Of a stretch of 64,000 nucleotides of DNA, positions 1 to 55,671 are shown piece by piece (the stretch's first letter is position 1; each line of letters begins with the position of its first letter). The notes under the pieces were generated by a model. The model was not told the origin of the DNA. It worked only from the letters and a program-made list of their open reading frames with translations, and did no database searches. The stretch covers positions 455,610-519,609 of the forward strand of contig CAJINV010000023.1 of NCBI GenBank assembly GCA_905178155.1, written 5' to 3'. Made by a program: the position numbers and the translations under genes. This DNA comes from Amoebophrya sp. A120 (lineage: Eukaryota; Protista; Dinoflagellata).

Positions 1-3000
1 TCCTCATGACCTACGCGACCTGCTATTTGCAGCAGGTGCTTGCGGACCAATTTGAAGATTACTATTCCTCGCGGAAAATAACGACTCTGATGGGGCGGCA
101 GGAGCAAAATAGCACTTATCAAATGTAAAAATGTCTGGGTCTGGAACAAAGCAACTTGTCATGCTAAATCTCAATCACGTACAAGTCTGTGTTGCATGAT
201 TACCAAAAGCTGTCCACTTTTGACCTCATCGAGAGGCAGTTTCTCATGCAGGATAGGCATGATAGAACTCTCACGGAGTCTGTCATGCTATGCCCTACAT
301 ACCAGACCGCTTGGGTCATGGAAAACCTGCAGGACAAGTCTGGCAGTTTTCCAGACCCAGACATTTTTACATTTGATAGCACTGGTGCAGCTGCCAGTTC
401 CTCTTCAAGAATCACCATAAAAATATCGCAAGAAAAAACTGCTTCACTGTGAGCTTGTGATGCAGAAAATGGATCGCAGAAGCGTGTGTCATGCTACACA
501 TGCAAGACAATGGATTTATTCTAGCTGTGTTTTCCCTTAGGAACTCCGCATGACAGATTTTCAGTCGTGTCATGCGTAACAAACTTGTGATGCAGATTTT
601 GCAAAATCACCACAGTGAAACTGTTTGTTCGTGGGATAAAAAATGGCCGCCGACCTCGCAGGCCTGTTTCTTTCCCTTCTACTGTATTGTGAGGAAAAAT
701 TATCCCCCCTCCCCATATCAGAGCGAAATTTCTGATGCTGGATTTGCGTACACAAATCAGCCTTGTCATCTTGCAGTAGAGGACTGCAGGCCCATGGCAA
801 AAGTCTATCGCGGAGAGGTTTTATTTAGCCTAGGCGGTCAGCATGACAAAAGTCTATGCCGTAGGCCCAACAGCATCACAAACCGCTGGCATAATGCGGG
901 AAGTCTTCTGGGTTTGCCTCCTTGCAGCAAAACAGAGACGAAGATTTGTGACCACAAATAAGCATCACAAATTTCCAAAAATGTACCTTTTCAATATGGG
1001 GCAGGGGGATTTATTTTCCTCGCAATACACTGCACGTTGCCTTCTTTGAGGGGGTATCAAATGTAAAAATGTCTGGGTCTGGAAGAATGCAACTTGTGGT
1101 GCTGAATTTGGATTCCAAAAAAATCTGTGTTGCATGAGCAGCAAAGGGAGTGCAATTTTTGCTACGCGGAGAGGGCATTTGTCATGCGGAATAGGCATCG
1201 CGAAGCCCTCAAAAAGTCTGTGATGCTAGGGCATGCATCACAGACATCGTGGCCCATGCAAAACGTGCATGACAAGTTTCAGAATCTTCCAGACCCAGAC
1301 ATTTTTACATTTGATAGGGGGGAGTGTGTGATCTGGCGTTGTTTTGGAGCCGGGAATATCCTGTGCAAAAGTATAATCTGATACTCGTAGTAATTGTAGG
1401 GATGCATGACAAATCTTTTTCTTTAGGTAAATCCGCATTACAAATTTCATTTGTCATGCGGAGGAAATTTGTCATGCATTTATACGAGTTGTATCGGACA
1501 CTTTTGCAATGCATAGGGAACTCTCTTGGAGGTTTCAGGCAGACAAGTATTCCGCCTGGCAGGGCATTTTTTGCGCGATCTTTCTGGAATCAGTGACCAA
1601 CCTGATTCTGCAGTGGGGAGATATGGGGAGAAAAAAGTTTGTCACAGTCACTAACTTGGAAACAACTTGGAACTTTTGCATTACAAATTTTTAGCATCAC
1701 AGGTTTTCCTTGTATTGCAAAAACACGGAGTGAAATCCCGTGTGCAGTTTGGCTGTGATGCATGTTTACGCATGACAGGCATTTTTTTGTATTGCAAAAA
1801 TGCCCATGAGTGATCGTGACGAACTTTTTTCTTTTGATAGGAGATCCCGAGGTGGTCGGAACTGCCACCGAGGATGAGCTGCTGGTATCATATCCTGTGC
1901 AAAAGTATCGTATTCGTATAAATGCATTACAAATTTCCTCAGCATGAGAAATGAAATTTGTAATGCAGATTTGCCTTGGGAACAAGATTTGTCTTGCAAG
2001 ACTTGCATTTATACGAGTACGATACTTTTGCACAGGATATATCAGGTCCTCGTGCCATAGGGAGTAGCAGTGAAATAATTATTATGACAGTGCACAACTC
2101 CTCCTGCTCCCCCTCATTTGTCATGTAAAATCCCAAATCCAGTCGCTTCCCTGTAGCACCGTTTGCATGACAAATTTCGAAAGCCCAAACAGTACTAGTA
2201 CAGTTGTAGGTGCATAAATTTGTAATGCGCAAGCTCCAGGGTCTAACTATCTCTATGGCGTTTGTATTGCTGTTCATGCAATACAAATGAGGGGGAGGGG
2301 GGGGGGGTTGTGCACTGTCATAATTATCGGCAACACTGATCATCATGCTCCAACTTCTGCCACAGAAGTTCATCTTGACGATAAAAATTATCCCGGAACT
2401 ACTGCATCAAAGGCTGCGGAGCTTCCGCAAGAAGATCTCGAGATGAGTATCCTATGTAAAAACGTCCATACCCCATAGTCAAGATGGGGAATCGGCTAGA
2501 CAAATCCACACGCTTTGGCTGTTTTGCATGACAAATTTGGACTCTTAGCGTAATGCTGTTTGAGCTAGCTCAGCAGCATCACAGAGCTAATAGATCATGC
2601 AGATTGGAGCATGACAAATTGCAGAACACGACTAGAAAATGCTTCTCATGGGGCTCCGCATGAGAAACATTCTGAGCATGCAGATTTGCATTACAACTCT
2701 GCTGGGGTGGGGACGTTTTCAAATACGATATTGAGTGCAGCTACGAACAACTGGGCGACTACATATCAACTGCAAAAATGTCTGGGTCTGGAAGATTCTG
2801 AGGCTTGTGATGCACGTCTTGCATGAGCCATGATGTCTGTGATGCACGCCCTAGCATCACATATTTTTTGAGGGCATCTTGATGCCTATTCCGCATGACA
2901 AATGCCCTATGCTTGTAGCAAGAATAATACTCGTTTTGCTACTCATGCAATACAGATTTTTTTGGAATCCAAATGCAGCATCACAAGTTGCATTCTTCCA

Positions 3001-5574
3001 GGAGACCCAGACACTTTTGCAATCCATACTACATCATTGGTGACCACCCCGCCGGGCACGAGCGCTACCGCTAGCGCGTCGCACGAGAAGCGGCGTATCA
3101 AAAGCAAAAATGTCTGGGTCTGGAAGAGTTATGCTGTTTTTGCATGACACAGGAGGTCTGGCATGGGGGCTCTAGCATCACAGGTTTCGAGAAGCTTCCG
3201 CAATGCCGAATCCGCATGACAAATCCCCCATTTTGCTAACAGAAAGTGGGCAGCCTTTGCTGCCTATGCATGAGAGAATTTTCTGTGTTCTGAAATGCGC
3301 ATCACAAGTTTGCACTCTTCCAGATATCCAGGGACGTTTGCAATTCATACGCCGAGAGGGCGAGCGACCTGGTGCCGGCCTAAAAATCCGAGGTAGAGCT
3401 ATGAAATGCATCAAATTATATGTCTGGGTCTGGGAGATTCCAAGATTTGTCATGCCAGTCTGGCATGACTCTGAACTCTGTATTGCGTAGGGCCGTCGGA
3501 AGTAGAGCTCCTCCTCTCGCCTGTCGTGCAAAAACGCTGTTTCTCATGCGGAGTACGCAACGCAGAACCACGGAAAAACTTGTCATGCTAAAAATGCTTG
3601 GCAGCGCATTACAATGCAGTCACTATTCCCTTCCTTGCATCACAAGCTTCCAGGCCCAGTGACATATTTGCAATGCATAAGAGCGGCTGCTTGTCAACGG
3701 CTACGCGTGGCCGCCTTCCGCTGTAGCCTGGCGGCTATCAAATGCAAATATGTCTGGGTCTGGAAACTTGTGATGCTGGTTGGCGAATGATTAGGGTGCC
3801 GCAATTGCCGTTCCAGCATGACAAGTTTCTGACATAGTCGGTGTAGTCTAATATCCTGCATGACAAACTGCGATTCCGTATGACAGAAAAGCGGCGCTCT
3901 TGGGTAACGTGCATGACAGACTTGAGAGTCATGCTAGCCGAGCATGACAAGTCTTGCATTCTTCCAGACCCAGACACTTTTGCATTTGATAGCGGCGGTC
4001 GGGGTGCAACTGATTCTGATCTGGTATTTTCTTTACGGGTACAATGCGAATAAGTTTGAGTACAACAAGAGACATCCCTACATTTTGATTCTGGCACTGC
4101 TGGGCTACTTGCTAGTGCGAAATTGCAGTCGCCCCTTCTGCGACCGCTTCTCCGCGTTTTTGGATTTTCTCGGCAGGAACACACTGGAGACCTACGTGCT
4201 GCAGTTTCACGTGTTGATGTGCCAGAATGTGCAGCATGTGTACCACAGAAAATAAATGCCCCCACGACCCCGAAAGTTGCAATAATTTGAGATGCGAAGT
4301 TTTCAAATGAAATAAACCTTATGTCATGCATTGCAAAACTATAAATCTTTCTGATACAGAGCCTAGTCGTATACAGCATCGCTTGCATGACAAGTGCCGC
4401 TCTTGCTGGGATCTTTTGCAACACAAAGCTTTGCTCCTCACGATAGAAAACCTTTGATGCTGATACATGCAAGAGGGCGAGTGTTTCCCTTGGAAAGGTT
4501 TGCAATACAAACGCTCCCAAGCTCTGGGATCGTGGGGGCATTTTCCCTCCCAATAATGTGCTCGTCGTGTTTCCCCAGGCTGATGTCACTTCCGAGAATT
4601 ATGATCCGCTCGCGCAGCTTATCAAATGTAAAAATGTCTGGGTCTGGAAACTTGTGATGCTAAAATGTGCACGATGAAAACACTTCCGAACGCAGTCCGG
4701 CATGACAAATTCCCAAAACGCTTTCTCATAGGCAAGCCGCATGAGAAACTGCGTTTTTGCATGACAAAAGAGGCTGCGACTTTTGTTGGTAATGCAATAC
4801 AGATCTTCTAGGTATGGAACGCTAGCATTACAAGTTCCAACCTTCCAGACCCAGACATTTTTACAATCCATACAGCTTGGGAACACGGTTTTGGTCGCGA
4901 CCGTGTTTGTTTTTCTTGCCTCGGATATCAAATGCAAAAATGCCTGGTTCTGGAAGAGCCAAACTTGTGATGCTGCATTCGAATGCTAAAAAAACCTGTA
5001 TTGCATGACCAGCAAGAGAATTCAAATTTGGCTACGCGGAGAGGGCATTTGATGTCATGCTGGATGCGCATAGAGAAGCGTTCAAAAAATCTGTGATGCT
5101 ATGGCATACATCACAGACATCATGGATCATGGAAAACGCGCATGACAAAGTTGTGCTCTTCCAGACCCAGACATATTTGCAGTCGATATCGGAGGCCAGA
5201 AAGGCCACGGTGGTGACGCAGGAATCGTTTGGAAAGCTGATAGATCACCTACTCGGCGTATCCTGAGTAAAAACGTCCCCACCCCATAGCCAAGTTGGCA
5301 AATCTGCAACACAAATCTCCAAGGTTTCGGAGTTGTGCATGACAACTTTCCATTTGCAGTGTAGTGCTGGTTAGCAAGGGAAGCTGCATGAGAGAGCCGC
5401 TTTCTCATCCTGTTTACAGCATTACAGATCCCAAAACACGACCGGAAATGCCTCTCGTAACGCTGCGCATTACAAATGTTCCTGTAATCGCAAATCTGCA
5501 TGACAACTCTGGGGTGGGGACGTTTTTACGCAGGGTACGGCGATCAAGCTGGCGGAAGAAAGGCCGCGGGATAA
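1..5574 (+). CDS. CASD1/Cas1p/RWA-family multi-pass O-acetyltransferase (Cas1_AcylT domain), 3' portion, split by 17 introners
   Basis: Removing introners plus one 5-bp repeat gives one open frame from base 3 to TAA 5572-5574. It contains LSWRFQADKYSAWQGIFCA (cf. RWA W.FR..LDRY...G...A) and EYNKRHPY...YLLVRN...FLGRNTLETYVLQFHVL (cf. YN..HPY...Y..LRN...LGKITLETYI.QFHIW). Start lies upstream of the window. Confidence 0.85.
117..378. mobile_element. Introner family A (representative; ~41 copies, ~225-280 bp)
   Basis: TIR TATCAAATGTAAAAATGTCTGGGTCTGGAA / TTCCAGACCCAGACATTTTTACATTTGATA, direct repeat gcact on both sides. Other starts ~1055, 2764, 3097, 3400, 3736, 4620, 4927, 8080, 8955, 9551, 9855, 10285, 10771, 11791, 12746, 13058, 13333, 16078, 18373, 18997, 19658, 20158, 24471, 26183, 27597, 27984, 28320, 28624, 28971, 31855, 33564, 34220, 35246, 42355, 45082, 50956, 52441, 53782, 54988, 55256. 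Confidence 0.95.
424..638. mobile_element. Introner family F (representative; ~10 copies, ~210-245 bp)
   Basis: TIR TAT(C/G).CAAGAAAAAAACTG / CAGTTTTTTTCTTG.ATA; others ~5577, 20742, 21209, 32183, 44794, 47318, 49718, 50003, 54733. Confidence 0.88.
685..1027. mobile_element. Introner family B (representative; ~20 copies plus variant 4241-4555, mostly ~310-345 bp)
   Basis: TIR TATnnnnnGnAAAAATCCCCCCTCCCCATAT / ATATGGGGAGGGGGATTTTTC...ATA; repeat tactg/cactg. Other starts ~6738, 7163, 11426, 15651, 16577, 21465, 24087, 25930, 34548, 42719, 43077, 45380, 48447, 51234, 51614, 52075, 52782, 53226, 54342. Confidence 0.93.
1622..1839. mobile_element. Introner family I (3 copies; others ~9278-9488, ~38239-38449)
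   Basis: Ends TATG..GAG.AAAAAG.TTGTCAC / GTGACGAACTTTTTTCT.TTGATA; repeat ggaga. Confidence 0.85.
1891..2039. mobile_element. Introner family C (representative; ~15 copies, ~150-170 bp)
   Basis: TIR TATCCTGTGCAAAAGTATCGTA(C/T)TCGTA / TACGAGTACGATACTTTTGCACAGGATA; repeat tatca. Other starts ~1357, 7823, 8474, 13634, 17274, 20481, 21824, 26493, 31670, 33369, 34000, 35018, 46414, 53591. Confidence 0.95.
2083..2322. mobile_element. Introner family G (2 copies; other 48165-48383)
   Basis: TIR TATGACAGTGCACAAC / GTTGTGCACTGTCATA; repeat attat. Confidence 0.88.
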
Positions 5575-6473
5575 GGTATGCAAGAAAAAAACTGTGTAAG
5601 TGTAACTCTGTAATGCAGAACATGCAAAAGATTTACACCTGTCATGCCAGACAGCCACGAAATCCTCTTTCCAGGTGTGTTTTCCCTTATAAGCCACGCA
5701 TGACAGGTTTTCTCTCTCATGTAGAGCAAATCTGTGATGCTGTCAGCCAAAGAAAGTTACACTAACACAGTTTTTTTCTTGGATACAAGGACGGCTTTTT
5801 CTGCTTATCCATCGTGATATTAAGTCTCTCTGTGGTCTTTTTAAAAATATTAGTTGCACCAAGAAAATAAACTACTCGACGCCGTTATTAATTTTGAAGT
5901 AGATCGGTGTTTATATGATATTTCATTTTCGATTCCTGGCATCTAGATCTAGTCTACTGATAGCTCCTTCTGAAAATAGGTGGATAGAGTGAGAAGAAGA
6001 AAGGAGATTCGAAACGCGCCGGCAAGAATCAGGACTCCATGTTGTATACTGTACTTTCTTCTGCTATCGCGATGTTGCCATGTACTATACCCGGAAGAGG
6101 AGCTATAGACCACTTCTGTGAGCAACTAGAAGTATGGATTCCAAAACCGAACGCGCAAGGACGAGATTGCAAAACCTACAAGGAATAGCTTACGACTGTT
6201 GGCTTTTGGGGAACTACGAAATGGATGAAACCTTCGGATGCTATGTGTGATCATCGGTCTTTCTTTATGGGGAAAGGTCTTTCGGATGCAAAACTTGCTG
6301 TGCGATCAGATAAAAATACTATTTCCGGAGGTGTTGACGTGGTAAATTATGGGAAAATTCTCTTCAATACTTTTTGTTCAGCGGAGGTCTTAGTGCTGGT
6401 CGGTAAGATATATTGAAAGAAAAGTGGCCAAAAAGATGTAAATTTATGCTCGTTTAAAATAAACAAAACCAAG

Positions 6474-9400
6474 ATGGTCGCTCGTGCTTGCGTCACCGGA
6501 ATTTATCTTGCCGTGAACTTCTGGTCTGCGATTTTGATAATATGGTCCGTGAAATGGGTACTGCTTGGCGGGTTTCACTGGACGGTGGCTCTCACTCTTT
6601 TACATGCGGGCACTACGGCCTTGGGCTTGCATCTGCTCTGGCGGGTGAGTTCTTCTCGAAAAAAGAACCTATCATCTCCTCTTGCGATTATTGAAGCCGG
6701 GCCTGGGCTGCACCAGAGTGCTGTACTAGTGAACAATATATCAAAATAAAAAATCCCCCCTCCCTATACTCAACAAACAAACGGAGATTTATTGTGTAGC
6801 GTGATTTGTGATCACACATCACCTCCGACTGTCACATGCTAGAAGGGAAGTAGAGATGCGGATTGTAGTGCTGGCTGGCGTAGGAAAGCCTTGCGTCTTC
6901 AACATGACAGGAAGCAACTAAAAGTAGATGAAACGGGAAACAGCATGACAAATTGCCCGCAAATGAGGTAGCGCCTGCGTCTCTTGGCCTTCTAGCAATA
7001 CATGTCGCAAATTTGTGTAGCCAAATGCAGCAGCACAAATTTCGTTTTGAATATTGGGAGGGGGGATTTTTCCTCACAGTACAATAATTACAAAAACAAG
7101 AATTCGAGCACATCAACTTCAAGATCAACCTTAGCTCCGGTGGTCGTGCCCAGAACATCATCTATCAAAAGGAAAAATCCCCCCACCCCATATCAAATGG
7201 GAAATCCGTGATGCAGGATTTGTGTACACAAATGCGCGCTGTCTTGCAATACGGCATCGCAGCCAGATCCGCAGCCTAGGGCGGCACGTTTTGGTCTAGT
7301 TGCTTAGCATTACAAACGGCTGGTCTCTGGGCCCAACAGTATGCCAAACCGCTCCCATAATGGCCGGGAAGCCTCTGCATTTGTCTTCTTGCAAGACAGA
7401 CGTGACTTGTGGTCTCAAATCAGCAAGACAAATTCTCGGAAGCATGCCTTCTCGACATGGGGAGGGGGGATTTTTCCTCTCAATATCATGTTCGAGCTCT
7501 TCGTCGCTGAGCACGCCACGGCGAGGAGCTGACGAGGAGCCACGATATGGCGTTCTCAAATGTTACATTCTCAACTGTTACATGATTTGTAATGCAAAAT
7601 CACAATCAGAATCGACACGATCGAGCTGCTTCGCATGGCAAATTCTCGAAGGGCCACACAGGCTGAGAATCTTTGTCAGATCTGTCATGCAAGACGCGCA
7701 AGGTGACCCCTTTCACTTTTGCCATTCTTGCATCACAAATCAATGTAACAGTTGAGAATGTAACACTTGAGGACGCCATACATGAGTTGTAGCGGATGTT
7801 GTCGTTGTTGAACTCGGTCTCGTATGCATTGCAAAAGCATCGTACTCGTATCAATGCATTACAAATTTCCTCAGCATGAGAAATAAAATTTGTAATGCAG
7901 ATTTACGTATGAAAAAAAGATTTGTAATGCATGGGATTACTACGAGTGCGATACTTTTGCGGTTCATATCTCGGTAAAAATGAGGCGGAGTTCATCAACA
8001 CACAGCCCTCTTGGGCGGGGCTGGAAAAAGAGGAAAAGGACCACCTTCGTGAACATCAAATTGGAGATCCACTTCATCTATCGAGTGCAAAAATCTCTGG
8101 GTCTGGAAGAGTGAGAGGTTTGTCATGCCTTATTTGCATGACCCCTGATGCCCGTAACGCATGGTCCAGCATCACAGATTTTTAGAGGACTTCCTGATGC
8201 CTGTTACGCATGAGAAATGCCTTCCCCACGTGGTACAATAAAGTGGACTCCTCTTCTTGGTTGCTGGTCATGCAGTACAAATTTTTTTAGAATCGAAAGA
8301 CAGCATCACAAGTTTGCATCCTCCCCGACCCGGACACTTTTGCATTTGATATCATCATGACGGCCAGAAAGCTGCAGCAGTTCGAGTGGTAGAAGATGAC
8401 GAGCAGGCCGCCGCCGGGGCAGAAGCAGATCCTCAGACGGCCGCGGTGGAGGAGCTGGACGAGGACCTCCGCTATGAACCGCAAATAAGCATCGTACTAG
8501 TATAAATTGCATTACAAATTTCCTCAGCATGAGAAATGAAATTTGCAATGCGGATTTAACTTGAAAAAAACATTTGTAATGTATGACTGCAATACGAGTG
8601 CGATTATACTTTTGCACAGGACCTCCGCCGAAGTTGTGCAACTACATGCGAAGATGGTTACGATCAACATCTCGACCGCCTGCGACTGATCGATAAGGAG
8701 ACCACGACGAGGCGCGACCACGACAAGGAACAACAGGAATTCTTGCATAAGTTCCACGGAGGTATTAAAGGCGTAAAAAGCCTCTCCAAGAACGAGGACG
8801 CCGACGGCGCGGGAGCAGCGTCCTCACGGGAGCTGCTGACTCCCCGGTGGGTCACCGACTTAACCTTTGCCGAGGCAAAGAAGCTATTCGCTTTGTCTCT
8901 CACCTACAGTTTTGGCATTCTGGTGAACAACAACTCTTTGCGGTACAATGCGGTTATGGATTGCAAATATCCCCGGATGTCTGGAAGGCTGCAACTTGTA
9001 ATGCTGTCTCTGGATTCTAAAAAAATTTGTACTGCGTGACCAGCAAGAGGACTCCAGTTTGTGCTACGCGGAAAGGGCATTTCTCATGCGGTAGAGGCAT
9101 CACAAAGTCGTCTAAAAATCTGTGATGCTAGGGGACACATGCATCACAGACAGCAAGGGTCATGGAATAAACTATGCGTGACAATAAATCTAGAAATATC
9201 TTCCCGACCCAGACATTTTTGCATTGGATAGTGGTCAGCATGTTCCAACTCTTAAAGGTGCTGATCACCCCGGTGATATGAAGAGGAAAAAGCTTGTCAC
9301 AGTCACGAAGTTGCAGGTTTGGCATTACAATTTTTTTCAGCATCACAACTTCTCCTTCTATTGCAGAAACACGAGGGATGAAATCCCTTATGAAGTGTGG

Positions 9401-12101: not shown

Positions 12102-12740
12102 GTTGATATAATAAACCATTGCTGATGTTGTTGGTACAGGACGAGGCAGCTGATGGCACTATTTTTACACAGAGCCCCGTGCAGCTGCTGCCCTCGCGAG
12201 ACGAGTTGTATGATAAAACATCTACACTTCCAAAAAAAATGTAAATTTTGTTTTTCTATTATTTCCGTGGACACATGCGTTTTACAATTTGTTCTCGCGT
12301 ATTGTTCTACAATCGCTATGGTGAAGGTTGTCTGATCGTTATAAAAAATTTGTTTTGCTACTATAATAAATGTTGAAGATGATGAACTTTGACAACTCTA
12401 GCGGTCGTTCTTGCTGATGTCGATATAAGTCTAAGATGTTGGATCAGGAGTCGAAAGAGGAACCCTATCGAGTTAGCTAAGATGGACGTTGTAAACAAGA
12501 CAAGAAATGGATCGGTGGACGAGGAAATCGAAAGAGATCTTCGTATGCAAGAAGTGCGAAGCTGCACGAGGAACAGCACGACCCGGTTGTTTCCGCTCGT
12601 GGTCCACCTTTGATAGCTCTAGCTCTTGCACCAGTTGTTGGGAAGAACAACAGCTAGAGGAACAACCTTCGTCTAGTACCCTTTCTCGTCGTGGCGCTTC
12701 CAAATAAAACGGCGGAGACGACTTGACGTTCCTGGGGACG

Positions 12741-35229: not shown

Positions 35230-35780
35230 GAAAAGCTCGCTGTGTATCAAATGCAAAAATGTCTGGGTCTGCAAGGTTGGAATTTGTGATGCTAACTTTG
35301 GATGCTAAAAAAATCTGTATTGCATGACCAGCAAGAGGATCCCAGTTTATGCTACGCGGGGAGGGCATTTGTCATGCGGGGTAGGCATCAGGAAGGCCTC
35401 TAAAAATATGTGATGCTAGATCATGCATTACAGACATCTGAGTCATGCAAAATATGCATGACAAACCTGGAAAGCTTCCAGACCCAGACACTTTTGCAAT
35501 GCATACTGTGGCTCCTGTGGCTTATATGACTAGCAGTTTTAACAACTGCAGCTGCACCCTTGAAAATGTATATAATATCTTCCTACTTCTACACAGAATA
35601 GTTGTGTATCAGGTAATATTCAATGTTGTAGCGGGAGGCTATACGGTAATCCGTATGCGGAATGGTTGATATTTAAAAAAATACAAAAAAAAGGCGCGCA
35701 AAATAAATTATTTACAGCTTTCGGCAAATACAACTTTGTTGATGACCTGATATTCTTTCGCGACGTGTCAGGTTCCTGTT

Positions 35781-36810: not shown

Positions 36811-37160
36811 GTCTAAGCTGCAAACTGAATCTGTAGTGCCTCTGATTGATTTAGCCGCAGAGTAAGTATGTTTAATATTCTTGAAGTAGCGCTAGCGTCG
36901 TGGTGAGAAGAAAGCACAGCTTTCATTTTTCACCGGAAGAACGCCAACGACTTCCATTCAGAACAAACAAACAAAGGTCAGCAGTGATTGTTTCTTTACT
37001 GTTTAGTGAATTCATTTGAACATTTCATTTTCGGCAATTTTTTTGAGTGTAGTTGCGCAGTTGGATATTTATATTGTCATACATCTTGTTGTAGATGTTG
37101 AACTTCTTCTTCTACTCTCCGCGACTTTGGTGTAGTGAAATGCAAATGCTGGCAATAAAG

Positions 37161-41300: not shown

Positions 41301-41904
41301 TCACTTGACGGAAGTTTAATATTTGTTCTCCTGGAGGCCAGAGACTAGATTGCGCAGTGCAAGAAAGATATAAAGCGATTCGGTTCAATACGTAGACGTG
41401 AGGTCACACACGAACGTTTTAATCTAGCGGCTTTTTTGCCATGCATCGTGAAAAACGACTGGCAGTAGTTTTCAAGCGGCCGGAAGTTGTGTTTTTACAC
41501 ATCATAAAAAAATAATTTGCGCTTATCAAGTGGCCGGGGCTGCGCCGGGGCAGGCAAAAGAGGCGCCCTTCTGAGGCGCCCACCGCTGTGGTTTCTGGCG
41601 GTTTGGGGCGCCCAAAATAATGCCAAGACGATAGAAACCGCCCACATTTGGGCTCCGCAAAAGTCGCCAAAAAAATCGAGCATCTTACAGGCGGGCTGAA
41701 GGCAGAAGGTTATGCCTTTTTGACAAAAAAAAAAAAACCAAAAACCCGCGCCCCGCCATAAGGTAAAAAGAGCGACTCCGTAGCCATTTTGGCTCAAGCA
41801 CCACTTCCGATAGCAGATTGGCCTTTCATGGCCATGGTCATGGGCATTGATTTAGAAACCGTTTCAAAAGCCACCCTGTTGCTAGGCCAATTTCACTCCG
41901 AAGG

Positions 41905-44900: not shown

Positions 44901-47900
44901 TTCCGTTTCCCCTATGGGAAGTGCACGCATGACAAATTTTCGGTGTCATGTGTAACAAACTTGTGATGCAGATCTTGCAAAATCATCGCAGTGAAACAGT
45001 TTTGTTTTCGTGGGATACGACAAGCAGTACCAGCACGAGTAGTAGCCGGTCGACGTCGTCCATCTCCTCGGCCTCGCTCACTATCAAATGCAAAAATGTC
45101 TGGGTCTGGAAGGATGTAACTTGTGATGCGCATTTCAGAACACACAAAAATCTGTGATGCATAGGCAGCAAGGGCTGCTGTGCTCGCTTTCTGTCACCAA
45201 AATGGGGGACTTGTCATGCGGATCCGGCATTGCGGAAGCTTCGCGAAACCTGTGATGCTAGAGCTTCCATGCCAGACCTTCTGTGTCATGCAGAAACAGC
45301 ATGACTCTTCCAGACCCAGACATTTTTGCATTTGATACTCACTGTCAGTTTCCGATTCACCAAAAGTCCAGAGGCCTTATATCAGAATGAAAAATCCCCT
45401 CTACCCGTACGCAAAGGGAGCAGATTTGTGTACGCATGATTTGTGATCACAAATCATGGTGTCATACTAGAAAGGAAGAGATGCGGTCTGCAGTGCAGGC
45501 TGGCGTGGGAAAGCGTTGCGGCTTCAGCATGAAAGGAAGCAACTGGAAACGGGAAACAGCATGACAAATTGCCTGCAAAGGAGAGAGCAACTGCGTTTCT
45601 TGGCCTTCTAGCAATACAGGTCGATTTGCGTACTCAAATACAGCAGCACAAAATTCGTTTTCGATATGGGGAGGGGGGATTTTTCCTCACAATACTTTAC
45701 GCAAAAAGATGCAGCACTTTGACGAAATCGACTATCACCCGGCCTCTGCACCGACAGCATCTACGGATGCCAAGATGCCTCCGCGCCCCTACGCGATATG
45801 GCGTTCTCAACTGTTACATTCACAACTGTTACATGAATTTGTCATGCAAAAGCACCATCATCATCCTCACGATCAAGCTGCTCCGCATGACAAACTTGCG
45901 AAGGGCTAAACCGCACCTAAATCTGTGCCGAATTTGTAATGCTGCAGGTGCAACCTTCCCCCTTTCACTTCCCCCAATTTTGCATCACAAGTTCATGTAA
46001 CAGTTGAGAATGTAACATTTGAGAACCCCATACGCGACACGAACGCCGTATGGAGGCGTCAGGATTGAAATCGTCAAAGTTGAAAAAGTTTGTGATGCAT
46101 AAAATGCAATCCGCAAAGTGCCTGTCTTGCAGAGTAGGCAAGGGAGGCAGATTGTAAGCCTGCAATAATTTGAGGGGTAGAACAAATAGCGCTGATAAAG
46201 TAGCATGACAAAAGGCGTCTTCGTTACGCAAACAGCATTACAAACTGGATTTAGGAACCACCAATAAAATTTGTCATGCGCCACTTGAAACCTGGGCTCC
46301 AACTGGCATCCATTTTATGTCGATGACAAATCATTTCTTTCAACTTTGTCGATTTCAATCCTGACACTTCCATACGCCGGACCTGGTCTGGGTCACCCAC
46401 GGGCTCTGGATGTTATGCATTGCAAAAGTATCGTACTAGTAGAAATCGCATTACAAATTCGGTCAGCATGACAAATGAAATTTGTCATGCTGTTTTACCT
46501 TGGTATAGAGATTTGTAATGCATGACTGCGATTACTACGAGTACGATACTTTTGCACAGGATAGATGTCGGACAAGTACAACGAGACCACCGTATCCTGA
46601 GTAAAAACTACGTCCTCTCCTGACAGTTGTCATGCAAATGTGCAAGAGTGACAGGAATCGATTTGTAATGCGCAGCTCCTTGAGAGGCATTTCATCCAAT
46701 CGCGTTTTGATGGCATTTGTAATGCTCAAAACGGGGTAAGAAAATGGCCTTCTGATGCGGGCTCCCTTGGTGCCAACAAGCACCGCACTGGAGAGAGAAA
46801 CTTGTCATGCCCAGCTCCCAAAACTTGGATTGTTGCTAGATTCCCAACCTGGCTATGGGGTGGGACCTGATTCTTGCTCGCGATACACCGACTGCGCATC
46901 TTGGTTTCGCCCGATCGTGGAGGCGTTTCGGGAGCTGGAGGCGACTCCTGACTTCCGCCGTCGCGGTATCACGTGTAAAAATGTCCCCAACTACGCAGAG
47001 TTGTAATGCAAATGTGCATGCTGAAAATGTTCCTCATGCGGAGACCCATGAGAAGCAGTTTTTTTTGATGTTTTGCGATTTGTGATGCTCAAATCCGCAT
47101 GGTATGTTTGTCTGTGATGATGCTCCTGCATTAGGTAAAGACCCCTACATGGAGAGCCCAAATTTGTCATGCGCAACAGCCAAAGCCGGGCGATTTGTCT
47201 AGCACATTTCCCTTCTTGACTCTGGGGTGGGGACGTTTTCGCTCACCATACACGGCGGGCGTGTGGTGTGGCAAACCAATCCCTTCGGCATTGAGCACAA
47301 GGGAATCCAGGCAAGAATATCCAGGTAAAAAACTGTGTAAGTGTAACTTTGTTGTAGGAAGAGCAGCATCACAAATTGGCTTTGCATTACAGGGAAAGCC
47401 TGTCATGCGGAGCTAGTACGTGAAAACACGTATGAAAGTGGCCCATGACGCACATCCAGCATGACAATCGTATATAGTTTTGCATTTTCTGCATCACAGA
47501 TTTACACTCACATAGTTTTTTTCTTGGATGAAGAAACGTCGATATGGAATACCAGTGTCAGCTCGAAACCATTGCAAAGCACAACTTATTACAACAAGAA
47601 GGAAGTGGTAAGCTGCCCGTCCAGACGATCTTCGGTTCAACCATGTCGCTGTGGACCTCCTGGCTCCTGGGTCGTCGTAGTTCGCAGCAGGTATCCTGAG
47701 TAAAAACGTACCCACAGCAGAGTCAGGATGGGGATTTTGCAACACAAACCTAGGAGTTTTGTGAGTCACGCATGACAAGTTGCACTCTGCAGTGTAGTGT
47801 AGGTTAGCAAGTGCATCCGCATCACAGATTCATCTGCTCATCCTGTTCACAGCATCACAAATTCCAAAACACGACTGGAAATGGCTCTCATGGGGATGCG

Positions 47901-48952
47901 CATTACAAGTCTTCCTGTCTTGTTTGCAAATCTGCATTACAACTCTGGTGTGGGTACGTTTTTACTCAGGATAGCAGGCCGGCCCCGATCAGCAGTCTAC
48001 CGCCGCAGCGGCCGGAGGTGGGCCACTAAAGTCGTTTGCGCTCTTCGACTCGTGGAGGATGATTAAAGACGGGTGTCTTTCCCTTTGGCGCCACAACTAC
48101 CACTATGACAAGACGACAGAACTCCTGATCGCGATCACCGTGCTTCGCCACCTCCTCGTCCCCCTATGAAAGTGCACAACTCCCCCTTCCCCTCATTTGT
48201 ATCGCATGAACAGCAATACAAGCGTCAGCAAGAATACAGGTTTTGCATAACAAATGTGGACAGAAGTGTAGTGCTATTTGGGCTGCCAGAACTCTTCATG
48301 CAGACACTGCCATGGGGCAAGGCGTCATAAATAAGGTATGTTGCATGACAAATGAGGGGGAGGGGGAGTTGTGCACTCTCATATCCCCAGTCGGCCAGGC
48401 AGGACGAGCTGCTCCAGGGAAGGAATTCCGCGGCTCTACCCCGCCCTATCAAATAAAGGAAAAATCCCCCCTCCCCATATCGCAACGAAGTTTCTGATGC
48501 TGGATTTCCGTACGCAAATCAGATTTGTCTTGCAGTAGAGGACTGCAGGCATAAGTCAAGCCTCGGTCGAGAGGTTTCGACGTAGGCACCTAGCATGACA
48601 AAAGTGGATGCTCTAAGCCCAACAGCATCACAAAACGCGGTTGGTTCTCTGGACTTGCCTTCTTGCAAGACAGACAAGATTTGAGGTCACAAATGTGCAT
48701 CACAAATTTTCAGACGGATGCGTTTTCAATATGGGGAGGGGAGATTTTTCTTTACGATACGCCCGCGCCTCTGTCTTCCACCGAGGATCAGGCTTTTGCC
48801 GGACGAACAAAAGTATGGCGTGGTCGATCGCTTTTTGCAGCAAGCCAGGTTTGCAGACATTTTGTTTCACCCCGATCCGCTGCAGTGGGTTCACAATAAC
48901 TGATAGTTCCGATTCATTTGGAACCACGCGGGGGCACGACACAAAAGATTGA
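41905..48952 (+). CDS. Type II membrane SGNH/PC-esterase-like protein (TBL/Cas1p-esterase-like), putative glycan O-acyl transferase or esterase, 16 introners
   Basis: TM WLGFSVLGILMYVC; WVMLIGDSNIRG (GDS nucleophile motif); PDLVWVTHGLW; RVVWQT; FALFDSWRM...HNYHY (possible variant of the DxxH motif). The frame stays open after introner removal. The last exon frame is ambiguous (stop 48903 or 48952). Confidence 0.65.
43544..44496 (+). mobile_element. Helitron-like element (family 2) nested in family H introner
   Basis: Begins A|TTACTATCTA; ends with hairpin agccgt..gctccggc/gccggagc.atggct then CTGG|T; internal (caccctctcgcg)n array ~44013-44140. Confidence 0.6.
46049..46374. mobile_element. 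Introner family K (single copy)
   Basis: ~37-bp TIR TATGGAGGCGTCAGGATTGAAATCGTCAAAGTTGAAA / TTTCAACTTTGTCGATTTCAATCCTGACACTTCCATA; repeat cgccg; removal restores RTPDLVW. Confidence 0.88.
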
Positions 48953-49698
48953 AAACGCGAAAAATCCTTTTGCGAGACAAAGATTATACTTGCTTCTTCA
49001 GATGATCACTCTTAGTAAACCCGACGTGGAAAAAAAACCGTAGAAAGAACCTATTTCAACATCTTTCAAACAACAGAGGAGTTTTTCATGCCTCCGAGTT
49101 GATGATAAATATCGGGTCGCTTTGTTGTGTTCATCCCCCTAAAGATTTAACACAAGATATGCCGTCGATCTTCTCAAAAAGCGGATCCTGCTCAGGAGAC
49201 AATAAAGAATGCCGGAGATGTTTTGGAATCCTACCGGGCCGAGGAGATGAAATATTAGTTGCAATGACTTTATTTCTACCCTACCTCATCCGGCGAACAA
49301 GCACAACAAGGTTGGCCTTCTTCTAAGTCGAGGAGGAGCTTCGTTGATTCTATTTTCATTTTATTTCACCTAGTTCCAACCAGTACATTTGACGAGTACA
49401 GTCTGTAGTTTTTTTAGAAAAATCAAAATATTATATAGCTCTAGCTAATATGAATAATGAAATATAGTAGTAGTACAATTAGACGCTCTTCGGCGTCTGG
49501 ACGTGAAATAGTAATATCGCCGGCGTCCTAGACATCACGCCGGCGCAGTTATAGTGTGGTTGTGCTGTCAATATGTTGTAAAAAACCGGTAAGAATAAGA
49601 AAGTACGATGTTTATCTAGAAATTCTTTCTCCGCGAGCAACGCGACGTCGTGGGTCGTGGAAATATCGAAATAAAGCAAAAGCGCAGGCCGCGGCGCC

Positions 49699-52600
49699 AT
49701 GCGGACGATTCACGTGGTATCGTGAGAAAAAAGTGGTACAGTTACACACTTGTTGTCAATTCAGCAACACAAATTTTTTCTGCATGCGAGGGAAAACTTG
49801 CAATGCACAGACCATATAGGCAAAACACATATGAAGAAATGAAGCTCGAAATTTATTTTTGGCATGACAGAGGTTGTCTGTCATGCTTGGCCTGCATTTT
49901 TAGACTACGTGTGTAACTGGAACACTTTTATCTCAGGATACGTAGCACTCTGCGGCTACTACATCCTGGAGCACGCGGTGTCGCTTATTTTACTGCGGCT
50001 GAGTATGCAAGAAAATAAAAACTGTGTAAGTCTGTGATGCAGAAAATGCAACACAGTTACACTTGTCATGCTCGACATGCATGATCGGCTCGCTTCCTAT
50101 GTTGTTTCCCTTCCTATCTGCGCATCACAAGTTTTTGTTCCTGTCATGGCAGACAAACTTCTTGTGATGCTGTTTTCCCAAAAGACTAACACTAACACGA
50201 CAGTTGTTTTCTTGCATACTGGGCGTGAAGGAGAAAAAAGTCGCGGTGCAGAGTGTGGTCTTGTACCAGGAGATCTATCCTGAGTAAAAACGTCCCCACA
50301 CCAGAGTCAAGATCGGGATTTTGCAACACAAACCTTGAAGTTTTGGGAGCCACGCATGACAAATTGCAGGCTGTATTGTAGTGCAGTTTAGCAAGGGAAG
50401 TCGCATTACAAATCCATCTGCTTATCCTGTTTACAGCATTACAAGTTCCAAAACACGATCGGGAATGCCTATCATGGGGATGCGCATTACAAATGCACTT
50501 GCGCTTGCGGATCTGCATGACAACTCTGGGGTGGGGACGTTTTTCAATACGATAAGATCTTCAAGGTAATCATCTGTGCCGCCGTCCTTGTCGGGCGCGC
50601 AGTTTTTTCCACCAGTCAGGACGCGCGACGCGCTCCAAGTATCATCTTCTCCCGTGCGGTGGACTTTTTGCCCCCGTTTTTGTATGCGGTGCAGAACAAC
50701 ATGGGCGTTTTCCTGCTCCTTTTCATTGACCCCGCCACCTTCCTAATCGGGATGCAGCAAAAAACCATCTGGGCGGCCATTTTCTCGTACTGCATTCTCA
50801 GTCGCGCGCAAACCAGGCGGCAGTGGGTCGCGCTCCTGCTCATGTACGTTGGCGTAATTGTCGTTCAGCTTCCCCAGATTCAGTCACTCAATGGAGGCAG
50901 CAGCAATAGCAATAACACCAACAAGGCACAACTACCACCAGCATCATCCTCTTCTTAACAAGTGCAAATATGTCTGGGTCTGGAAACTACTTGTGGTCCA
51001 TGTCAGTGAACAGAACGCGCACTGCAATGCACCGCCAAGCATGACAGATTTTCTCGTGGCTCTGTGTTGCGTATTCCGCATGAGAAACATCGTTTTTGCA
51101 TAATAGAGAAGAGGAGGTCTTCGTGGCCACGCAACACAGAGCTCAGAGCCATGCCAAACTAGCATGAGAAATCTCGCAATTTTCCAGACATCCAGGAATA
51201 TTTGCAATGCATACTTCTTCCTCGTCTGCAACGTATCGTGAGGAAAAATCGCCCCTCCCCATATCGAGACGAAGTTTCTGATGCTGGATTTCCGTACACA
51301 AATGCGCACTGTCTTGCAGTAAGGCATCGCAGCCAGATCCGCAGCGTAGGTACTGGGGGCGCTTGGGTGTAGGTGTTTAGCATTACAAATGGCTGCTCCC
51401 TAGGCCCAACAGCATGCCAAATCGCTTCCATAATGGTGCGGAAGCCTCTGCGCTTGTCTTCTTGCAAGACAGACGTGATTTGTGGCCTCAAATCAGCAAC
51501 AGAAAGGCACCGCTTCGATATGGGGAGGGGGGATTTTTCCTCTCAATACAACGCCAACAACAACTACAAGTGCGGGAGAAATCACCGTCGCTGCAGAGGT
51601 GCTGTGCTTCGCGTATCAAAAGGAAAAATCCCCCCTCCCCATATCGAAACGAGGTTTCTGATGCTGGATTTCCGTACACAAATCAGATTTGTCTTGCAGT
51701 AGAGGACTGCAGGCATATGTCAAGCCCCAGTCGAGAGGTTTTGACGTAGGCGCGCCTAGCATGACAACCGTGTATGCTCTAAGCCCAACAGCATCACAAA
51801 CCACCTGCAAAACGCGGAGCGCTTTCTGGACTTGCCTTCTTGCAAGACAGACAGGATTTGAGGTCACAAATGCGCATCACAAATTTTCAGACGGATACGT
51901 TTTCGATATGGGGAGCGGGGATTCTTCCCCGGGATATCGCGGGCTTGTTCCTCACGTCCCTCGCGAACGGTCTCGCGGGCGTGTGCACTGAGAAGCTGCT
52001 CGTCGACCGCACGGTGTCCTACTGGGACAGGAACCTGAATTTTGCGGTAAGTAGCGTGATTCTGTGCGAAGTTGTATCAAAAGGAAAAATCCCCCCTCCC
52101 CATATCAAAACGAGGTTTCTGATGCCGGATTTGCATACACAAATCAGATTTGTGTTGCTGGAGAGGTCTGCAGGCCCCTATCGAGCCTGAGGAGAGAGGT
52201 TTTTGCCTAGACGCTTAGCATGAAAAACGTCCGCTCTGTAGGCCCAACAGCATGACAAACCGCCCGGATGAAGCGGCGGCGCCTGTGGCGTTGCCTTCTT
52301 GCAAGACAGATGCGATTTGTGGTCACAAATCAGCAACACAAATTCCCGAAAACGCACCTCGTCAATATGGGGAGGAGCGGTTTTTCCTTACGATAAGTTG
52401 GCGTGGTGCTCAAGCTCGTGCTTGGGAGCTACGCAAAATCTACCAAGTGCAAAAATGTCTGGGTCTGGAAGAATGCAACTTGTGATGCTGCATTTGGATT
52501 CCAAGAAAATCTGTATTGCATGAGTACCAAAGGGAATGCAGTTTTTGCTACGCTGAGAAGGCATTTGTCATGCGGAATAGGCATCAAGAAGCCTTCAAAA

Positions 52601-55600
52601 AATCTGTATTGCTAGGGTATGCATCACAGACATCATGGCTCATGCAAAACGTGCATGACAAGTGTCAGAATCTTCCAGACCCAGACATTTTTACAGTTGA
52701 TAAAATCCGCGCCGGCGCCTTCGCTTTCGGAAATCGGCAAGCAAGTGCTCCTGCCTAGCACGGAAGGGTTCCCCTGGTACCTACTACGATGAAAAATGCC
52801 CCGTCCCCATATCAAAACGGAAATCTGTGATGCAGATTTGTGGTCACAAATCAGCTTTGTAATGCTAGAAGGCAAAAGATGCGGACTGCAGTGCTGCCAC
52901 CTAGCGTGGGAAATCCTTGCTGCTCCAGCATGACAGGAGGCAACTGGAAGTGGGAAACAGCATGACAGATTGCCTGCAATTCAGGCCGCAGCTGCGTCGC
53001 TTGGCCTTCTAGCAATACAAGTCGATTTGTGTACTCAAGTACAGCATCACAAATTTCCTTTCCGATATGGGGTGGGGGCTTTTTTCACATTGATAGTGCC
53101 TCTGGCTTTCCATCCTGCTGCAGGCAAGCGGAGGGATTTGTTGCGGCCTCATCATTCGCGAGTTCAACATCGTGCAAAAGGACTTCATGAACGCCATCTC
53201 GCTCATCCTCACGGTTCTCATCACCTATCAAAAGGAAAAATCCCCCCTCCCCATATCAAAACGAAATTTGTGATGCTGGATTTGAGTACACAAATCAGGT
53301 TTGTCTTGTAGTAGAGCACTGCAGGCACATACGAAGCCCGAGCAAGGAGGTTTTGACATAGGCGCCCAGCATGGCAAACGTCTACGCTGTAGGACCAACA
53401 GCATCACAAACCGCCTGCATTATGCGGCGGAGCCTGTGGAGTTGCCTTCTTGCAAGACAGAGCCGATTTGTGGTCACAAATCAGCATTGCAAATTTTCTG
53501 AGGCGTGTCTTTTCGATATGGGGAGGGAACATTTTCCCTCACGATATCACCGGCATCGTGTTCCGCGACGAGATCCACTGGCTGGTGCCGTATGAACTGC
53601 AAAAGTATCGTACTTTTGTATACATTGCATTACAAATTGACTTAGCATTACAAATTAAATTTGTGATGCGGATTTGCCTATAACAAAAAGATTTGTAATG
53701 CACAAACGCGATTAGTACGTGACTGCGATACTTTTGCAGTTCATATGCCGGTGGGCGCGGTGATTGTCACCCTCGCCACGTTATGGATTGCACATATCCC
53801 TGGATGTCGGGAAGATTGCAGCTTGTGATCTGCATTTGGAAGATTCTAAAAAAAAGTGTATTGCATGAGCAGCAAGAGGAATCAGATTTTTGCTAGTACG
53901 CGGACAGGGCATTTGTCATGCGGGATAGGCAACATCAAGAAGCCCTCAGTAGAATATTTATATTTGTGATGCTAGCACAGACAATAAACTTGCATTCTTC
54001 CAGACCCAGATCGATATTTGCAGTTGATGCACATGTCTGTACAAGAGCACAAGGCCTATTCATCTCGGATCCCTCTGCAGCTGCAGCCGGGGCGGCCTCG
54101 GGGAGAACAAAGAACGACAAGGTTTCTACTACTTGCTGCCGACCTTCCAGCTCGGCCTTTGCGTAGCTTTTCTGAGCGCCGTGGCGGCGATAAAATTTGC
54201 TGGCATTTTTGAAACCAGCAGCGTCGCCGTGTTAGGATCTACTTCTTCATCTTCATCGCAACATCTGTCGTATAATAATGGGGGCAAAAGTAGTGTTGCT
54301 GATCCTCTGGCAGCAAGGCTGGTGGTATATCACCCCAGAATTATCAAAGTGCAAAAAGCCCCCACGACCCCATAGTACTCAAAAGACAATTTGTGTATGC
54401 TGGATTTGTTTAAACACAAACGAACTCTGTATTGCAGCAAGAGCCTGTCTGCATATTCTAAGCCCATTTGGGTACTACTACGCCTCCGGCTAGCAGCTGA
54501 GCATGAGAAACAAGTCTTTGACATAGGCGAAACGCATGACAGACTCGCTGCACAATGCGCCACATGGGTGCTGTTTGCCTGGTACGCAAGACAGAGCTGA
54601 TTTGCGGCCACAAATCAGCATCGCAAATTTCCTTTTCGATATGGGCAGTAGGGGGGATTTTTCCTGACGATAAGAATCAAGAACTCGCAAGTGGTCAACA
54701 GAAGGACAGCTGCATTGATGACAGAGACAGCAGTATGCAAGGAAAAAACTGCGTAAGCGTAACTTTGTCTTGCAGATGTTGCAATACAGTCACGCTTGTC
54801 ATGCTGAACATGCATCAGAGGCTATTTTCCTACGTGTTTTCGCGTACTAGCTACGCATGGCAGGTTTTCTCTGTCGTGCAAAACAAATCTGTGATGCTGT
54901 TCCTGCAAAAAAGTTACACTTACACATTTTTTTTCTTGGATAAGCAGGCAGCTCGGGCGGGGGCATCAACATCAACAACGAAGAGGCTATCAACTGCAAA
55001 AGCGTCTGGGTCTGGAAGGCTGCAACTTGTAATGCTAGCTCTCCATACCTAGGAAATCTGTATTGCATAACCAACAAAAGTCGCAGCCTCTTTTGCACAG
55101 GCAGAAACGCAGTTTCTCATGCGGATTTCCTACGAGAAAGCGTTCTCAAAAGTTGTCATGCTGTGATGCATTTGGAACTGGTTTCCAGACCCAGACATTT
55201 TTGCAATTCATAGAGGCAGCACGCGGACAACTAGTCGCACGACTAGTAGACTCTTTATCAAATGTAAAAATGTCTGGGTCTGGAAGGATGTAACTTGTGA
55301 TGCTGCGTTTGGATTCCAAAAACATCTGTATTGCATGAGTACCAAAGGGAATGCAGTTTTTGCTACGCTGAGAAGGCATTTGTCATGCGGAATAGGCATC
55401 AAGAAGCCCTCAAAAAATCTGTATTGCTAGGGTATGCATCACAGACATCATGGCTCATGCAAAATGTGCATGACAAGTTTCAGAATCTTCCAGATTCAGA
55501 CATTTTTACAGTTGATACTCTTCCCCACATCATGACCACCTTCATCAAGGGGGCCATAGTATCTTCGAAGTGAAAGACCAGTACGACACGGCAGGACGGT

Positions 55601-55671
55601 CCAGCGTTGTTGACCAGACAGCCCACACTACAGCGCTGATGACGCAGCTTCTGCTCCTAGCAAATAACTAA
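49699..55671 (+). CDS. Second SLC35A-family nucleotide-sugar transporter, 16 introners
   Basis: MRTIHVAL.., SVVLYQEIFK, PPFLYAVQNN, IDPATF..QQKTIWAAIFS..L.R..TRRQWVALLL, NGLAGVCTEKLL, SYWDRN, ILLQASGGICCGLIIREFNIVQKDF; extended C-tail; TAA 55669-55671. Confidence 0.82.

Follow-up and report, generated by a model that had tools for sequence, protein, structure and literature searches.

A candidate cluster of six introner-filled genes for glycan biosynthesis in the dinoflagellate parasite Amoebophrya sp. A120

The window analysed here is a 64,000-nt stretch of the genome of Amoebophrya sp. A120, a parasite of the dinoflagellate lineage. Between positions 1 and 55,671 it holds six genes on the + strand, each broken into 16-23 exons, and nearly all of the breaks are introners, the inserted elements described below. 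We consider it probable that the six genes form a cluster by which the parasite makes an O-acetylated glycan, either secreted or on its surface, and just as probable that they serve one pathway. Within 55.7 kb they encode five families that are at most distantly related to one another and whose members make, transport or acylate Golgi glycans: a Cas1-type membrane protein, three predicted transporters, a fusion of an epimerase with a GT77 glycosyltransferase and a predicted SGNH-fold protein. That the six genes are real and belong to these families is practically certain. The features are listed here; the RNA-like contigs are those of sets X3-X6, which come from one sample, have an RNA status guessed by the tool and were compared with genes 1-4 and a small part of gene 5.

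3..5574, + strand: gene 1, 3' portion with 18 exons; the first 215 residues are encoded upstream of the window; predicted Cas1_AcylT multi-pass membrane protein of 611 residues, RWA-type (PF07779, RNA-like joints)
6474..12101, + strand: gene 2; 558 residues, 16 exons; putative SLC35-clan multi-pass transporter (open frame, atlas features, weak UAA alignment, own contigs in X3, X5 and X6)
12741..23704, + strand: gene 3; 793 residues, 21 exons; N-terminal anchor, epimerase domain 117-473, Nucleotid_trans/GT77 domain 608-775 (Pfam, RNA-like joints)
23705..25100, end approximate, + strand: 3' untranslated region of gene 3; two spliced introners (RNA-like contig and joints)
25506..35229, + strand: gene 4; 23 exons, 801 residues with an RNA-supported joint (819 residues by the first build); predicted transporter of the SLC35A type whose central loop is long
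29983..31306, + strand: GT..AG intron of 1324 nt in gene 4; arose by an insertion that duplicated 28 nt of its target
41905..48903, + strand: gene 5; 558 residues in 17 exons; SGNH-fold protein, by prediction membrane-anchored as type II (modelled fold, joints)
49699..55671, + strand: gene 6; 543 residues, 17 exons; predicted SLC35A-type transporter with a long C-terminal tail (PF04142)
117..55517, no strand assigned: 109 introners bounded by TAT...ATA ends and a 5-nt direct repeat; most measure 146-378 nt, and nested insertions bring six of them to 0.6-1.7 kb

Six reading frames and the introners that interrupt them

The window is rich in repeats. The elements were located by their inverted-repeat ends and flanking direct repeats, and the automatic calls were curated by hand (8 removed, 37 added). 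This gave 109 elements in 1-55.5 kb, in which a TAT...ATA body is flanked on both sides by a 5-nt direct repeat; 105 of them fall within the six coding spans, and together they occupy 61% of bases 1-55671. TAT...ATA ends are present in 93/109 and a perfect 5-nt repeat in 83/109, and a GT/GC-AG reading is possible in just 8/109. The end matrix reads TAT, about 7 variable bases, AAA. The introners described from A120 likewise have a TAT start, about 7 variable bases and an A-run, carry direct repeats of 3-5 nt at their borders and mostly lack a GT-AG reading (PMC7789003). With their inverted repeat, TAT and A-run, direct repeat and splicing from RNA-like contigs, the elements of the window are A120 introners.

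When each element was removed together with 5 nt (one copy of its repeat), and a single longer insertion was taken out of gene 4, all six frames were open, with lengths of 396 (5'-partial), 558, 793, 819, 558 and 543 residues for genes 1 to 6, compared with 135-305 residues at most for unspliced open reading frames (ORFs) across the same spans. The removed lengths are spread over the three frame classes (35/39/35), and yet no frame is broken. Fixed removal of the element +0, +1, +3, +4, +6 or +7 nt broke six of six frames. Removal of +2 nt, which is in the same frame class as +5, left five of six open; thus, the frames alone fix only the length class, and it is the RNA-like contigs that fix the +5 length. 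Random removals of +3, +4 or +5 nt (300 draws) produced median frames of 27-161 residues, and full length was reached only for gene 5, at its maximum.

In the contig comparison over genes 1-3, removal of element + 5 nt accounts for 14 of the 15 joints listed (of 48), and the remaining joint skips three elements plus the two small exons in between. In the comparison over the 3' region of gene 3 and genes 4 and 5, the figure is 10 of the 15 listed (of 37); of the other five, one matches in part only and lies at the 3' end of gene 3, and four apparently join repeat copies. Raw RNA runs (X9-X11) gave matches to element pieces only. Separate contigs carry gene 1 (about 2.5-2.7 kb), gene 2 (about 1.9 kb) and gene 3 (about 3.4-3.7 kb), and since each gene has its own transcript contig, the arrangement points to linkage and not to an operon. 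We did not use contig depths for genes 1/2/3 as evidence of co-expression (55.9, 41.3, 30.9 in X3; 28.7, 23.8, 19.1 in X5; 69.5, 50.7, 42.9 in X6; about 10/8/8-22 in X4). A 1939-nt contig of depth 22.2 joins gene 3 exons to 23562-24081, with joints of equal depth that skip both elements of the 3' untranslated region. A 123-aa frame without Met at 23.9-25.2 kb, considered as a seventh gene, was rejected because it sits on this gene 3 transcript contig and has no Pfam match. The RNA-like contigs also show that the long insertion in gene 4 is spliced as a GT..AG intron (29983-31306), yielding the 801-residue product; it is the sole non-introner intron in the six coding spans.

Deposited proteins agree with these models. 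The gene 3 prediction equals A120 protein P0001 at 792/793 residues, with the mismatch at a repeat-ambiguous joint; gene 5 is identical to P0121; and the gene 1 part is the C-terminal 396 of the 611 residues of P0136. The six same-strand genes that an earlier note on this DNA had read after introner removal are borne out by open frames and, for genes 1-5, by RNA-like contigs or deposited proteins as well. The note had also called the genes invisible to standard ORF calling. Their raw frames are indeed short, but at least three of the six (genes 1, 3 and 5) are already in the public annotation as 'unnamed' models and hence are not hidden.

Nested insertions enlarge six introners to 0.6-1.7 kb (13634-15249, 17274-17929, 21824-23561, 24471-25093, 26493-27545 and 43499-44721). 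Those at 13634 and 17274 are removed exactly in RNA-like joints, and the one at 21824 contains some ten 96-nt tandem units. A second type of insertion, with target duplications of 28-60 nt, was seen at 30035-31332, 35781-36810, 37161-41301 and 61958-63400. It is this type that is removed as a GT..AG intron within gene 4, and several serial copies break up a short unexplained frame near 37.1-41.3 kb. The sequence at 60830-61830, in the right flank, is a free-standing copy of an element that occurs nested within two introners (13780-15230 and 26520-27400), which suggests a separate mobile family.

Predicted functions of the six products

In the pathway that we favour, genes 2, 4 and 6 would provide the Golgi with nucleotide sugars. 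Gene 3, whose product is anchored in the membrane, would carry out C4 epimerisation of a UDP-sugar in the lumen, with UDP-xylose to UDP-arabinose as the likeliest pair, and the GT77 domain of the same chain would then take up the epimerised sugar. Acetyl groups would be brought across the membrane by gene 1, and gene 5 would transfer them to the glycan via a Ser135 acyl-enzyme, replacing the domain that is fused in fungal and animal Cas1.

SLC35 proteins import nucleotide sugars. Gene 6 matches PF04142 at 64.6 bits on one exon (cut-off 27) and the CMP-sialic acid transporter, of solved structure, at E 5e-8. One exon of gene 4 scores 16.5 bits with PF04142 (E 0.005), under the cut-off, and the core alignment of gene 4 with gene 6 has a z of 23.5 that none of 200 shuffles equalled, at 21-23% identity. 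By homology, genes 4 and 6 are SLC35A-type nucleotide-sugar transporters. Single exons of gene 2 gave no match in Pfam (TPT PF03151 included), NCBIfam or PDB. The atlas neighbours of one of its exons are UAA, Nuc_sug_transp, SLC35F and TPT clusters, all of the nucleotide-sugar-transporter clan. Its alignment with the UAA domain is weak (z 2.9, equalled by 2/200 shuffles), as is that with gene 6 (equalled by 8/200 shuffles), and none was obtained with gene 4. We therefore place gene 2 as a putative SLC35-clan transporter with long low-complexity loops. Long Ser/Thr/Ala-rich insertions not present in relatives were observed in genes 1, 2, 4, 5 and 6.

Gene 3 combines an N-terminal membrane anchor (residues 16-34) with PF01370 Epimerase (134 bits, 117-473) and PF03407 Nucleotid_trans (52.7 bits, cut-off 22, 608-775). 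Its epimerase domain has the glycine-rich NAD motif TGAAGYIAS and YAS(S/T)K in the YxxxK position, as in an extended short-chain dehydrogenase/reductase. Plant GT77 members transfer arabinose or xylose. A pentose is favoured as the donor because a predicted lumenal epimerase is fused to a GT77 domain, and we hold this only tentatively, as somewhat less than an even bet. Speaking against it, the domain scores 224.6 with galE (cut-off 262.3), so that a hexose substrate is possible. Three members of its clade (see below) bear the automatic label 'UDP-arabinose 4-epimerase', in a tree that contains no characterised enzyme.

Gene 1 matches PF07779 (Cas1_AcylT) at 154.2 bits against a gathering cut-off of 27.3. 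In the 611-residue protein the first hydrophobic segment is at 45-63 and the Pfam match starts at residue 71, leaving no room for an N-terminal SGNH domain. On this sequence evidence gene 1 is the membrane domain only, as in RWA, and lacks the full Cas1p/CASD1 architecture with a fused PC-esterase domain. It is also ~110 residues longer than the Cas1 proteins of Amoebophrya A25 and diatoms.

For gene 5, no Pfam family was found at E <= 1, PF13839 (PC-Esterase) included, and no NCBIfam match. Five distant relatives were found among 1.84 billion representatives. Gene 5 and these five share GDSN, HGLW, WQT and a terminal His, and GDSN, His473 and H321-G-L-W324 are invariant in 6/6; the gene 5 motifs are G133-D-S135, H321-G-L-W and N471-Y-H473. 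A single-sequence model had a pLDDT of 37, Foldseek gave no match at E <= 0.001, and a PDB sequence profile gave no relevant match. An alignment-based model (mean pLDDT 51) matches SGNH/GDSL folds over 125-503, with PatB (Z 11.7, root-mean-square deviation 4.6, 185 aligned) and XOAT1 (Z 11.4, root-mean-square deviation 5.3, 204 aligned) among the best rows. The atlas neighbours are PC-Esterase-like clusters, and a look-alike cluster carries PF13839 on 19% of its members. Judged from the modelled fold, the GDS serine and the C-terminal His, gene 5 is a member of the SGNH superfamily. It also has the Trp/His after strand 3, replacing the SGNH Asn, by which the PC-esterase/TBL group is defined (H321-G-L-W324; PMC2824669).

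To our knowledge, plant RWA and TBL genes are not clustered. RWA proteins are required for polysaccharide O-acetylation, probably by moving an acetyl donor, and TBL proteins transfer acetyl via a Ser-His-Asp centre (PMC11360243), whereas fungal Cas1p has both domains in one chain (PMC2824669). In comparison with plant RWA plus TBL/AXY9 and with Cas1p (PMC11360243, PMC2824669), gene 1 lacks an SGNH domain like RWA, and gene 5 is predicted to be membrane-anchored with GDS and His/Trp after strand 3; gene 5 differs from plant TBL in having neither DxxH nor a PC-Esterase Pfam match. The RWA+TBL analogy drawn earlier is strengthened because gene 1 has no SGNH domain and gene 5 has a predicted SGNH fold. 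We see the chances as evenly balanced that genes 1 and 5 acetylate the pathway product.

A mechanistic variant, compatible with any of the readings of the locus, is that gene 5 trims acetyl as an acetylesterase or is an inactive scaffold, and that gene 1 uses another partner. It is less likely than not in our view, and it accommodates findings that fit acetyl transfer poorly. Gene 5 lacks the canonical DxxH that precedes the last helix, having H-N-Y-H where the relatives have D-x-H (3/5) or G-x-H (2/5), and Asn471 stands at the catalytic Asp position, where 3/5 relatives have Asp. Most top fold matches are esterases, whose Z scores tie with those of PatB and XOAT1, so the fold does not separate a transferase from an esterase; PC-esterases were, moreover, first proposed as esterases (PMC2824669). 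On the other hand, His/Trp after strand 3 with a type II anchor is the PC-esterase/TBL pattern, of which the tested plant members are transferases (PMC11360243), and DxxH variants are reported in the PC-esterase family (PMC2824669).

Returning to acetyl transfer and the pathway as a whole, the family assignments of the earlier note fared as follows. The CASD1/RWA acetyltransferase (gene 1, RWA-type) and the epimerase-GT77 fusion (gene 3) were confirmed by Pfam, as was gene 6; genes 2 and 5 gave no Pfam match, and gene 4, under the cut-off, was placed by its homology to gene 6. Two of the three proposed nucleotide-sugar transporters are of the SLC35A type, and for gene 2 the evidence reaches the SLC35 clan only, not SLC35E3/UXT. 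The description of gene 5 as an SGNH/PC-esterase-like type II protein stands for the SGNH fold, by a predicted model, and drew no support from Pfam for the PC-Esterase part.

Adjacency and origin of the locus

No other recognisable gene was found between the six by ORF and Pfam tests of the intergenic sequence. Sixteen of 17 intergenic or flank ORFs had no Pfam match and one had a sub-threshold match; eight candidate single-exon ORFs (seven in 35.3-41.9 kb, one at 24.9 kb) were absent from the protein collection, a comparison confined to unspliced models. X4 contigs cover 35506-35780 and 36770-37413 and none covers 38768-41431, a contig gap that proves nothing. In the right flank (55.7-63.5 kb) no introner was called and the frames tested had no Pfam match, and the left end of the cluster extends beyond the window. 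A + strand frame beginning at 63541-64000 (>150 residues, without Pfam match) is probably the next gene past the cluster.

Several points weigh against a functional cluster. The deposited identifiers of gene 3 (…20603) and gene 5 (…20607) leave three models between them, of which only gene 4 can be placed. The numbering thus gives two models besides gene 4, and the earlier reading, in which no unrelated gene was recognised between the six, is not confirmed. Gene 4 may have been annotated in pieces, or the models may lie at 35.3-41.9 kb, where 6.7 kb of DNA has been duplicated and inserted. The shared strand, previously taken as an argument for a cluster, is uninformative here because co-orientation is the rule of this genome, with 98.5% of A120 genes in co-oriented blocks (PMC7789003). 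The same source reports no correlation of gene organisation with function or expression profile in A120, and the locus runs counter to that picture. There is one glycosyltransferase domain for three transporters. Finally, the chance estimate below depends on how common glycan genes are, in a genome where only 23% of genes have a KEGG assignment.

That estimate assumes a random order of 26,441 genes, uses arithmetic instead of permutation and applies to a selected window. If the genome has 35-150 SLC35 genes, a run of seven models that holds three of them should occur in it 0.0009-0.07 times. A run of seven with five glycan families, genes 4 and 6 being taken as one, should occur 0.001, 0.009 and 0.11 times at a glycan-gene share of 2, 3 and 5%, but 1.1 times at a share of 8%. 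Chance adjacency is therefore unlikely unless glycan genes exceed ~5% of the genome. Such a chance origin would combine an old local duplication in a glycosylation-rich genome, with genes 4 and 6 as ancient paralogues, and the falling together of the rest in a co-oriented block. The homology of genes 4 and 6 at low identity is in keeping with it, as are the rows reported for A120, of which at least 35 are SLC35 and many are glycosyltransferases (PMC6176090), the two unplaced models that may intervene, and the selection effect of a window chosen by scan. Set against these, fewer than 0.12 occurrences are expected at shares up to 5%, and the epimerase clade of gene 3 is fused or clustered with glycan enzymes elsewhere. 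We regard this explanation as quite improbable and conclude that the adjacency is very probably not due to chance.

Among stage-upregulated annotated genes of A120, 35 rows are SLC35, and the majority of these belong to late infection (PMC6176090, Table 5). SLC35E3 and SLC35A occupy adjacent rows of that table, which carry no gene identifiers and cannot be tied to the locus genes, and the locus gene identifiers were not found in the expression supplements searched.

We compared the gene 3 epimerase domain with matches in a quick, midpoint-rooted tree of 31 hand-picked rows. It falls in a clade of 13 rows with SH-aLRT support of 97, named members of which include Paulinella and a MAST-4 stramenopile cluster. 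In seven of the 13 rows Pfam finds another glycan domain as well: GT77, STELLO, GT64 + GT31, or UDP-galactopyranose mutase. The epimerase-GT77 fusion is not unique, since clade member P0008 also has it. Another member, P0003, combines the clade epimerase with a STELLO glycosyltransferase and, by eye, N-terminal GDS and DGVH motifs; it would unite an SGNH domain, a transferase and an epimerase in one chain.

A scan for similar loci covered 1/64 parts of a metagenome collection, and neighbours were analysed for L001, the best of 80 loci; ORFs were listed for L002, and the remaining 78 were compared with the window proteins by tblastn only. The L001 epimerase is 52% identical to gene 3 over 95 residues. 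The locus (L001:1-17712) is gene-dense, intron-free and ~35% G+C, and eight of nine consecutive ORFs are glycosylation-related, including GT77s and an SLC35B-type transporter. They comprise a GT47-GT90-GT77 protein, three more GT77s, an inositol-phosphatase-UAA transporter, an epimerase-UDP-galactopyranose mutase, a mutase and a prolyl hydroxylase-hydroxyproline arabinosyltransferase. L001 resembles a whole hydroxyproline-glycosylation pathway of a compact protist or giant virus. Within the 20 kb examined it has just the epimerase in common with the window, which counts against the favoured reading.

An alternative to a single pathway is an island of glycan genes, gathered or acquired together and serving several glycans, much like those that Ostreococcus has on its small outlier chromosome. 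We give this a minor share of the probability. The excess of transporters over glycosyltransferase domains suits it, L001 shows a similar grouping with different partners, and the modular epimerase/glycosyltransferase/transporter groups of Ostreococcus chromosome 19 vary across species (PMC5082852). In contrast, the pairing of an SGNH-less Cas1 with a stand-alone SGNH protein and the fusion of epimerase with transferase fit a single assembly line, which is the reading that we prefer.

The coding spans contain 106 introns in 10,965 coding bases, or 9.7/kb, 105 of which are introners. The corresponding genome-wide A120 values are 1.42 introns per kb of coding DNA and 17% of the assembly as introners (PMC7789003), against 61% element DNA at the locus. 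At genome-average rates 5-7 canonical non-introner introns are expected and one was seen (p about 0.01-0.04, Poisson, overdispersion ignored), a paucity that fits genes arriving without introns. Against such an arrival, genes having non-canonical introns only are a common A120 class (PMC7789003). One could envisage that marine protists exchange compact, intron-free Golgi-glycosylation cassettes built on one epimerase clade, that the A120 lineage acquired one whole and introners then filled it (105/106 coding introns, at seven times the genomic intron density), and that the cassette today determines an acetylated coat, specific to the strain, with a part in host recognition or resistance to viruses, like bacterial O-antigen loci. 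We offer this as speculation that is more likely wrong than right by a wide measure.

Searches for relatives of the other genes were mostly negative. Viral contigs gave no relative of genes 1, 3 or 5 by sequence patterns, 26/64 collection parts scanned for a viral origin gave distant epimerases only, and prokaryote genomes gave no gene 5 relative; all three are weak negatives. No A25 orthologue was named among the 120 matches listed of 709 for a gene 3 exon, and exon 1 of gene 5 yielded none. Two Cas1 proteins of A25 share 45-49% identity with gene 1 in two segments, and in a Cas1 tree gene 1 and the A25 pair form an open fork.

Comparison with known systems

Amoebophrya controls dinoflagellate blooms, and the linked genes for import, epimerisation, transfer and acetylation are concrete candidates for an assayable coat. 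Already known are the introners, at least three unnamed gene models and eukaryotic glycan clusters, of which there are few precedents. New are the functional grouping, an SGNH-less Cas1 beside a stand-alone SGNH protein, which would be a natural RWA-type pairing outside plants, and a second cluster around the same epimerase clade. Together with L001, the locus suggests that marine protists may have more Golgi-glycan clusters than the small number described so far. A literature search that reached few subscription journals found no paper on this cluster or on Amoebophrya surface glycans.

The earlier note had presented clustering of non-homologous glycan genes as rare in eukaryotes. Five families are clustered here and by rough arithmetic are unlikely to be so by chance, and eukaryotic precedents do exist. 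In the GAG cluster of Aspergillus, Uge3 acts as the epimerase. Like that cluster, the window has adjacent, non-homologous, complementary genes, here with two annotated models unplaced. Both are eukaryotic clusters with an acetyl-modifying enzyme, devoted (for the window, by our reading) to one polysaccharide; the GAG cluster has five co-regulated genes, a proven product and extracellular deacetylation (PMC4817252), whereas the A120 locus has Golgi-type transporters and a predicted acetyl-adding pair. The mycosporine (MAA) cluster of Symbiodiniaceae is likewise a pathway cluster in a dinoflagellate genome, but for a small-molecule sunscreen and not Golgi glycosylation (PMC11453091). The clusters on chromosome 19 of Ostreococcus tauri, such as ostta19g00110-140, are alike in occurring in a marine protist, in having adjacent genes for an epimerase, a glycosyltransferase and a TPT-family transporter, and in being proposed to make one surface glycan (PMC5082852). 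That host is a green alga with a whole variable chromosome tied to virus resistance, and no Cas1+SGNH pair is named in the text available (PMC5082852); in A120, a dinoflagellate-lineage parasite with no phenotype known for the locus, the candidate cluster comprises six genes with an epimerase-GT77 fusion and three predicted transporters.

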